Part shown: positions 9,391-10,320 of the stretch, one piece after another
How positions within the stretch are numbered: the first letter of the stretch is position 1
Layout of the letters: the number at the start of each line of letters is the position of its first letter
UHGV virus genome: UHGV-0128831
Reading direction: 5' to 3' (one strand)
DNA: 12,153 nt
Source of the DNA: a virus
Notes under the pieces: model-generated
What the model saw: only the letters and a program-made list of their open reading frames with translations
Database searches by the model: none
What the model was told of the DNA's origin: nothing
Program-made: the position numbers and the translations under genes

Positions 9391-10320
9391 TTGGCTATAT
9401 TCGAATTATTTTCAAAAAGACAAAAAAAATTAAGAGGTGAAGTAGCTGATGTTTACCAATACACGAATATACCAAATGCATTTCGTGTTCAGGTTGTTCA
9501 TATTGTAAGAGATACTATCGGTGAAGATAGTGACTATGAAACGGAAGCAAGTAAGCTTTACAGACTCGTTCATAAAACGCTGTGTAAGGAATATGGTGTA
9601 TTCTCTCTCAAACAGTATCCTGAATCGAATTTCGGGGCAATTTTTGACTATTTCCTAGCTGAGAGAGATCATGAAAAATGCTTGGATATCATTGAGATAT
9701 GTTTCAAACTGATAGACGGGTATATAAGATCAAATGAGTGGAAATTCAGAGGGTTAGTAAAGCAAAGTCCTGATGATGCTATTGAAGAACTTAATATCAG
9801 GTTTAAAGAAGCAGGTCTTGGATATCAATTTGAGTCAGGAGAGTTGGTTAAAGTTGACTCACAATTCATTCATTCTGATGTTGTAAAGCCTACGCTTCAG
9901 ATTCTTGGTAAGAACAAGAGTTATAACGGAGCAAACGATGAGTTTTTATCCGCCCATGAGCATTATAGACATCAGCGATATAAAGAATGTTTAAATGATT
10001 GCCTCAAATCTTTTGAAAGTCTAATGAAAGCCATACATAAAAAACATTCTTGGCAATTTAATGATACTGACACAGCTAAAAAACTAATTAACAGTTGTTT
10101 GGCAAATAATTTAGTACCTGAATACCTCCAGAATCAATTTTCTTCAATAAGAATTCTACTTGAGAGTGGTATTCCAACCATTCGAAATAAAGAAGGTGGA
10201 CATGGACAAGGGGCAGAAATAACAAAAGTTCCTGAGTATTTAGCGAGTTATACCCTTCATTTAACCGCTACTAATCTGCTGTTTTTGGCTAAATGCGAAG
10301 AGAGTTATACGAAAAAGTAG
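9391..10320 (+). CDS. AT-rich cargo protein, tentatively AbiJ/Abi_C-like HEPN-domain protein (candidate abortive-infection or toxin RNase)
   Basis: 309 aa. TTG start with GAGGA 8 nt upstream. N-terminus MAIFELFSKRQKKLRGE resembles the 'FSKR' start I associate with AbiJ-type proteins. C-terminal R-N-K-E-G-G-H (codons 10183-10203) fits the HEPN Rx4-6H motif. Hand-counted G+C about 27-33% over 9391-9510, against about 47% in hipA (10621-10680) and about 40% in phage genes. Confidence 0.45.
   Translation: MAIFELFSKRQKKLRGEVADVYQYTNIPNAFRVQVVHIVRDTIGEDSDYETEASKLYRLVHKTLCKEYGVFSLKQYPESNFGAIFDYFLAERDHEKCLDIIEICFKLIDGYIRSNEWKFRGLVKQSPDDAIEELNIRFKEAGLGYQFESGELVKVDSQFIHSDVVKPTLQILGKNKSYNGANDEFLSAHEHYRHQRYKECLNDCLKSFESLMKAIHKKHSWQFNDTDTAKKLINSCLANNLVPEYLQNQFSSIRILLESGIPTIRNKEGGHGQGAEITKVPEYLASYTLHLTATNLLFLAKCEESYTKK

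Follow-up and report, generated by a model that had tools for sequence, protein, structure and literature searches.

The AbiJ-like gene and its product

The DNA analysed here, a stretch of 12,153 nucleotides from virus genome UHGV-0128831 referred to below as the window, contains a filamentous prophage lying between a perfect Escherichia coli dif site and, on its right, the hipA/hipB genes. On the plus strand, at 9391-10320, it carries a gene of 309 codons for a member of the STM4504/CBY_0614 family, called here the AbiJ-like gene, whose stand-alone product belongs to the AbiJ-NTD4 subtype of the AbiJ family and consists of two domains. The coding sequence opens with TTG and ends with TAG, and direct reading of the sequence places a Shine-Dalgarno-like GAGGA at 9379-9383 (plus strand), 7 nt 5' of the start. 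An in-frame TAA at 9364-9366 leaves this TTG as the first start possible thereafter, RefSeq annotates a coding sequence at the matching coordinates in identical prophages, and homologues are conserved from residue 1-2 of the protein, with TTG as start in 6 of 28. The open reading frame, start and ribosome-binding site proposed in an earlier note on this DNA, made from the sequence alone, are thus borne out by the sequence itself, by RefSeq and by the N-termini of homologues.

The N-terminal domain (residues 5-168, 9403-9894, plus strand) matched the Pfam family AbiJ_NTD4 (PF18863) with 94.9 bits against a cutoff of 34, so that the AbiJ-like N-terminus named in the earlier note was confirmed by a profile search. 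This domain is alpha-helical with one beta-hairpin, had no structural neighbour among solved structures, and is presumed to be the sensor or regulatory part of the protein. The C-terminal domain (residues 170-305, 9898-10305, plus strand) matched DUF7014 with 258.9 bits. Over nearly its whole length the protein belongs to NCBIfam NF046078, STM4504/CBY_0614 (456.1 bits against a cutoff of 150, E=4.1e-137, residues 23-300 on positions 1-280 of the 281 of the model); RefSeq gives the identical protein this same family name, and it also matched PHROG 20794, which the PHROGs database lists as of unknown function. A profile search of PDB sequences gave no HEPN match, its best hit being a spurious one to ZapB (E=0.026), and the assignment of the C-terminal half therefore needed a comparison of folds. 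This domain forms the four-helix up-down bundle typical of the HEPN superfamily, and we are confident of its HEPN fold. A Foldseek search of the viral structures in BFVD returned no match under E=0.8.

Relatives of the protein were collected by a word-indexed search, which gave 3,230 clusters, and by an exhaustive HMMER search over 1.84 billion representatives, which gave 2,720; conservation was read from an alignment of 132 relatives, mostly 38-58% identical to the query. The two halves expected of an AbiJ-family protein are both present, namely an AbiJ-NTD domain, since AbiJ_NTD4 was matched by the query and by 132 of 132 relatives, and an Abi_C-type HEPN domain, recognised through DUF7014 together with the fold. 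Among the relatives, 23 of 132 matched Pfam HEPN and 12 of 132 matched Abi_C (E of 0.01 or less), and an older Pfam release holds precomputed Abi_C matches in all of the 120 closer homologues listed. The architecture had been described before at the level of the family, CBY_0614 being the published exemplar of an AbiJ-NTD4 domain fused to an AbiJ-type HEPN domain in the 2013 survey of HEPN proteins (PMC3710099), so that a HEPN fold is not the new angle that the earlier note had considered.

The earlier note had pointed to the sequence RNKEGGH as a possible HEPN motif and had itself called the bare pattern weak. Both statements proved correct. An R-x(4-6)-H pattern occurred in 76% of shuffles of the protein, and a second instance, R32-H37, lies in the protein itself; hence it is the conservation of the motif, and not its occurrence, that counts as evidence. 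The codons of R265-N-K-E-G-G-H271 (10183-10203, plus strand) encode the HEPN catalytic motif R-phi-x4-H, with a polar residue after the arginine and followed by a conserved G272-x-G274. R265 and N266 are each kept in 130 of the 132 aligned relatives, H271 and G272 each in 131, and the spacing is invariant, as is E209. This near-invariance, within a domain of HEPN fold, supports the reading of RNKEGGH as a true HEPN motif.

The gene also stands out by its composition, with 34.7% GC overall and 26.8% at third codon positions, the lowest values among the genes of the window; the other prophage genes lie at 37-47%, and hipA has 47.5%. When the whole sequence was scanned, the 930-bp segment of lowest GC content (34.2%, starting at 9231) covered most of the gene and fell about 2.4 standard deviations under the mean. 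The hand counts of the earlier note (16/60, 20/60 and 28/60) were exact on recounting, and the gene is indeed compositionally foreign to the rest of the window. The same note had gone on to say that it looked recently acquired, a reading for which we reject low GC as evidence. Relatives of the gene were more AT-rich than their own flanks at 34 of 34 loci examined; AT-richness is thus a trait of the whole family, which makes low GC uninformative as to the time of arrival.

A variable cargo slot closed by a probable attachment module

The AbiJ-like gene and its 86-bp leader fill a variable cargo slot (9305-10325, plus strand) of a CUS-1-type inovirus. Slot variants were collected with the phage repressor protein (encoded at 8339-8785) as anchor, since the identical protein is found in all backbone variants; it occurred in about 17,000 index blocks of a public assembly collection, every time within one and the same backbone, which comprises secretin, Zot, the pVI-, pIII- and pVIII-like genes, G5P, pII, the repressor and a hydrophobic protein of 139/140 aa. 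On the left, homology of the backbone stops 2-8 nt past the stop codon of the 139/140-aa gene, and on the right it resumes 3-7 nt past the stop codon of the last cargo gene, so that the slot is marked by the former stop codon on one side and by GGTTCGCAYAATGACG on the other. Between these boundaries, phages with an identical repressor hold at least six different contents. The first is the AbiJ-like gene; the second is a protein with a DpnII-MboI restriction endonuclease (REase) domain accompanied by DUF6953, the REase-type protein being assigned by PADLOC to Aga_Helical-REase (1.3e-34); the third is an unannotated protein of 363/367 aa, and the remaining three are unannotated pairs of 155+123, 89+240 and 91+159 aa. 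The alternative contents lie in loci L133-L142, at about 6970-8250 in each, corresponding to 9305-10325 of the window. The earlier suggestion of an acquired cargo is therefore upheld, as exchangeable contents between conserved phage boundaries. With contents that vary between strains and one REase-type defence protein among them, the slot has the properties of a pHVR-type inovirus defence locus, and most of its other genes, unmatched in both Pfam and PADLOC, are candidates for new defence genes.

Every cargo variant is oriented as the repressor gene, and a search of the 86-bp leader upstream of the AbiJ-like gene turned up no sigma-70-like promoter. Both observations leave the independent expression proposed in the earlier note unsupported, and the simplest reading is that the gene would be co-transcribed with the repressor in lysogens. 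The repressor gene itself (8339-8785, plus strand), which is RstR-like, encodes a helix-turn-helix protein matching Pfam HTH_3 and Phage_CI_repr and would be the first gene of this presumed lysogeny transcript. Between it and the slot lies the 139-aa hydrophobic gene (8885-9304, plus strand), which has no Pfam match and whose product shows, by eye, about four predicted membrane-spanning segments and belongs to the conserved backbone. We considered whether this membrane protein and the AbiJ-like protein could form a two-gene system and rejected it: the 139-aa protein is 96% identical in a variant with a different cargo, so that its gene is backbone beside other cargos, and it is absent both from a Salmonella variant in which the AbiJ-like gene is present and from all contexts outside inoviruses.

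The slot is closed by a conserved backbone module (10326-10396, plus strand) that begins with a dif-like site, GGTTCGCAYAATGACGTTATGCTAAAG, and continues into a GC-rich hairpin; in the window the dif-like site is GGTTCGCACAATGACGTTATGCTAAAG (10326-10352) and the hairpin occupies 10350-10389. The earlier note had seen here a strong terminator belonging to the cassette. The hairpin is real, with a GC-rich stem of 17 bp followed by UUUU at 10350-10392 and a folding energy of -40.3 kcal/mol for the 83-nt region (z = -7.3); a simple terminator scan did not call it. It does not belong to the cassette. Six different cargos are each followed by an identical or nearly identical copy of the module, and the 'terminator' is therefore part of the phage backbone; a private terminator of the AbiJ-like gene is rejected on this ground and because the hairpin is also shared by plasmid and SIR2 loci (see below). 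One slot variant (L137) lacks a recognisable hairpin module.

At the prophage/chromosome junction, a hybrid imperfect dif (10388-10418, minus strand) combines a XerD-like arm with a perfect XerC arm, TTATGCGCACC, the two being separated by a 10-nt spacer. In the packaged, minus single-stranded DNA, the dif-like site at 10326-10352 pairs with this inverted site into a long forked hairpin at -32.7 kcal/mol (z = -7.0), leaving a 5-nt bulge in the centre. Altogether, 10326-10418 looks like a folded attP of the CTXphi type and not simply a terminator.

A module of about 75 bp, about 93% identical to this one, was observed beyond inoviruses. On plasmid pBS74R-D_5 (L131:900-3640) it starts where a paralogue of the STM4504 family, 61% identical, has its stop codon, and it starts likewise at the stop of a SIR2-family gene in the dif-hipA locus of the E. 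coli 222 chromosome (L132:900-3620). Each of these two loci has an ISNCY transposase gene upstream, and a further end of about 50 bp is common to both; the two ends also recur on other plasmids around different genes, among which are those of an ASCH-domain protein and of hypothetical proteins. We tentatively suggest, as a rather doubtful possibility, that the module, besides serving as the phage attP, may be a shared recombination end through which defence genes are swapped among CUS-1-type inoviruses and ISNCY-transposase elements, the latter located on conjugative plasmids as well as at the dif locus of the chromosome. If this were true, enterobacteria would possess an Xer-site-linked exchange of single-gene defence cassettes, with the AbiJ-NTD4/HEPN gene among its commonest passengers.

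The other end of the prophage is marked by a perfect 28-bp E. coli dif (1123-1150, minus strand), an exact match to GGTGCGCATAATGTATATTATGTTAAAT. To the left of it, positions 1-1122 hold gene fragments only, which RefSeq annotates as partial pseudogenes of a heavy-metal sensor kinase, an AEC transporter and an acetylxylan esterase, and this suggests an older, decayed insertion beside dif. The exact AbiJ-like gene was found in 18 of 5,426 complete E. coli genomes, in one to four tandem copies and always on the chromosome. In most carriers, such as E. coli NC101, the whole prophage is present in tandem (one to four copies per genome), while the window holds a single copy abutting hipA. Tandem copies of the prophage are also reported for YpfPhi. 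Nucleotide searches of INPHARED with the AbiJ-like gene and with the whole prophage gave no match.

The earlier note had left open whether the AbiJ-like gene might be puvA, the CUS-1 gene found in an in vivo mutant screen of a K1 strain (PMC4266046). We compared the locus with CUS-1 and Ypf-phi by way of the review of YpfPhi, which assigns puvA to a virion protein that binds the host receptor (PMC4266046). The AbiJ-like protein, a cytoplasmic two-domain protein encoded at the attL side, is accordingly not PuvA. According to the naming of the same review, the CUS-1-specific orf1 and orf1a are adjacent to attL, replace YPO2271/2272 and had no database homologues (PMC4266046); located at the attL side next to the imperfect dif, the AbiJ-like gene therefore corresponds to orf1 or orf1a. 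What the literature says of puvA fits another gene of the window, a 570-aa open reading frame (4487-6199, minus strand) in the pIII position, with the pVIII-like gene on one side and the pVI-like gene on the other. For this gene, which has no Pfam match, a 520-aa product from an internal start is annotated by RefSeq and in several assemblies.

Distribution, proposed function and alternatives

Relatives of the AbiJ-like gene behave as stand-alone mobile genes. A 96%-identical copy occupies the same slot in Salmonella prophages, and copies of 74% identity occur in two further settings. In Klebsiella and other enterobacteria they form a single-gene islet near proBA, next to a tyrosine integrase, and in the superintegron of Vibrio cholerae they are cassettes among those of ParE/Phd, MqsRA, CcdAB and DarT. 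At least 314 plasmids in PLSDB, most of them conjugative plasmids of E. coli, carry the 61%-identical paralogue, placed after an ISNCY transposase gene and before the same hairpin module. In IMG/VR, 59 contigs, mostly of 30-110 kb, carry relatives with heterogeneous neighbours (terminase, tail, resolvase and helix-turn-helix genes) and no recurring partner; 14 of the relatives lay within 2 kb of contig ends against 8.8 expected, an excess so modest that it was dropped as evidence. Beyond these, the family reaches free-living marine bacteria, cyanobacteria, Poribacteria, Acidobacteria and Methanothrix.

We consider it most likely, with moderate confidence, that the AbiJ-like protein is a single-protein abortive-infection RNase in which NTD4 gates the HEPN domain, and that the phage carries it because it protects the lysogen. 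Two precedents lead us to this proposal: SadR, an Abi_C protein with RNase activity, needs each of the R, N and H of its motif to degrade RNA in vitro and to defend against phages (PMC13590631), and AbiJ of lactococci confers phage resistance, from which phages escape by mutations in their single-stranded DNA-annealing proteins (PMC13064643). N-terminal domains of this kind were proposed in the HEPN survey to sense invaders and to restrain a suicidal HEPN RNase (PMC3710099). By analogy, AbiJ_NTD4 would keep the RNase silent until an invading phage or another mobile element is sensed; the HEPN domains would then cut cellular and/or phage RNA, so that translation stops and the infection aborts, a loss which may protect the lysogen population and hence the prophage. 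Expression of the gene would probably come from read-through of the repressor operon in lysogeny, as for cI-rexAB of lambda.

Several points weigh against this proposal. No functional paper on STM4504, CBY_0614, DUF7014 or the NTD4 subfamily was found. The similarity of the query alone to Abi_C and HEPN is below threshold in the current Pfam (E of about 0.14), a value that is explained by Pfam modelling this C-terminus apart, as DUF7014. The motif of SadR, RNEYGDAH, is an R-x6-H, one residue off from the R-x5-H of the AbiJ-like protein. PADLOC gave only a weak and partial match to PDC-S32, itself an unvalidated candidate (residues 6-223 on positions 9-214 of the 285 of the model, E=4.5e-10). 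Finally, copies from E. coli, Vibrio, Halomonas, a Coxiella endosymbiont and a metagenome-assembled genome of Thermodesulfobacteriota share about 70% amino acid identity, with an almost invariant HEPN half, a degree of conservation that is unusual for a defence gene and could mean a more housekeeping-like role. As for PDC-S32, only the related N-terminal region aligned and not the full length, and we do not count the protein as a member.

The mobility of the gene would also fit a role in addiction, in which a HEPN toxin unleashed upon loss of an often episomal and unstable inovirus stabilises the phage and gives no defence against other phages. The contexts speak against this: no partner gene is conserved across the inovirus, integron, islet, plasmid and tailed-phage settings, no adjacent antitoxin gene recurs in any of them, and the surroundings of the AbiJ-like gene show neither an MNT nor an antitoxin nor a small RNA repeat. 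Its product is moreover a single stable polypeptide with no obvious mechanism of differential stability, which makes addiction unlikely. The protein was likewise not placed among the type II toxin-antitoxin systems of HEPN/MNT type, as neither an MNT gene nor another antitoxin gene is conserved next to it in the contexts examined.

The position of the gene downstream of the repressor and in the same orientation, together with the partial immunity of Ypf lysogens to superinfection (PMC4266046), could instead point to a factor of the phage life cycle, acting through RNA processing or degradation in lysogeny, in replication or in superinfection immunity against related inoviruses. We regard this as improbable, since the slot is filled by unrelated genes in near-identical phages, so that the AbiJ-like gene is dispensable for the phage, and since most relatives lie outside inoviruses. 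A contribution to virulence or fitness in an animal host could be argued from the modest in vivo fitness effects tied to CUS-1 and YpfPhi (PMC4266046) and from carriers that include extraintestinal pathogenic E. coli (ExPEC) and mouse-adapted isolates. Nevertheless, this explanation is highly improbable: puvA has been assigned to the virion receptor-binding protein and YpfPhi, also advantageous in vivo, has other genes at the position of the slot (PMC4266046), while the AbiJ-like protein has neither a signal peptide nor a secretion-related domain and belongs to a family found in free-living marine bacteria, cyanobacteria, Poribacteria and Methanothrix. That the HEPN domain is catalytically inert and serves as a binding or regulatory module, like that of MtlR or sacsin, is very hard to credit, given that non-catalytic HEPN families usually lack the R/H dyad (PMC3710099) and R, N and H are near-invariant here.

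Significance and relation to known systems

Over two decades, discussion of CUS-1 and YpfPhi has centred on their association with fitness or virulence as prophages of K1 E. coli and Yersinia pestis, and the open reading frames at their ends were listed as without predictable function. Standard laboratory strains, NC101 and NGF-1, are among the carriers. The assignment of one of these to a HEPN protein of defence type suggests that part of the advantage of carrying an inovirus is protection from other phages or mobile elements, and the same protective role is indicated by the exchangeable nature of the slot, in which other strains have a restriction-type nuclease. The family is a common one: it comprises more than 3,000 clusters, and hundreds of plasmids of ExPEC and avian pathogenic E. 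coli carry a paralogue. What is new is the assignment of the CUS-1 cargo reading frame and the definition of the slot at nucleotide level in an enterobacterial lineage; the architecture of the protein, predicted in 2013, and the defence hotspots of Vibrio inoviruses integrated at dif were already known, and no concept is changed.

The nearest parallel for the slot is found in these Vibrio inoviruses, whose defence genes in a hypervariable locus were described in 2024-2025 (PMC11630473, PMC12715192). Both are small filamentous prophages inserted at dif via XerCD, with a variable locus of defence-type genes, including Abi genes, beside the attachment site; the locus described here differs in belonging to the enterobacterial CUS-1/Ypf lineage, where 'variable accessory gene regions' of CUSPhi/YpfPhi have been noted in the UPPhi paper (PMC7307601) and slot contents have been undescribed in terms of defence. 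As in CTXphi, two inverted dif-like sites would fold in single-stranded DNA into an attP whose central region is bulged, and cargo lies beside the attachment site. The ctxAB cargo of CTXphi, in contrast, is zot-distal and encodes a toxin directed at the animal host, whereas the cargo here is repressor-proximal and defence-like.

Among prophage genes for abortive infection, HepS of Gifsy-1 and RexAB of lambda are expressed in lysogens; they have no sequence relationship to the AbiJ-like protein, rely on another sensor domain and are carried by tailed phages, not by an inovirus. Closer in sequence are AbiJ (Abi-859) of Lactococcus and SadR of Staphylococcus, with a C-terminal Abi_C-type HEPN domain, an R-N...H motif and single-gene occurrence on mobile elements. 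At the N-terminus these have no added domain, NTD3, NTD5 or Sdh5, in contrast to the NTD4 of the AbiJ-like protein, which the SadR survey recorded in only 3 of 2,815 Abi_C proteins. The closest counterparts are CBY_0614 and STM4504 themselves, which match over the full length with both domains in the same order and with the R-N-x4-H motif, and from which nothing structural sets the AbiJ-like protein apart; what is specific to the gene described here is its carrier, a CUS-1-type inovirus.
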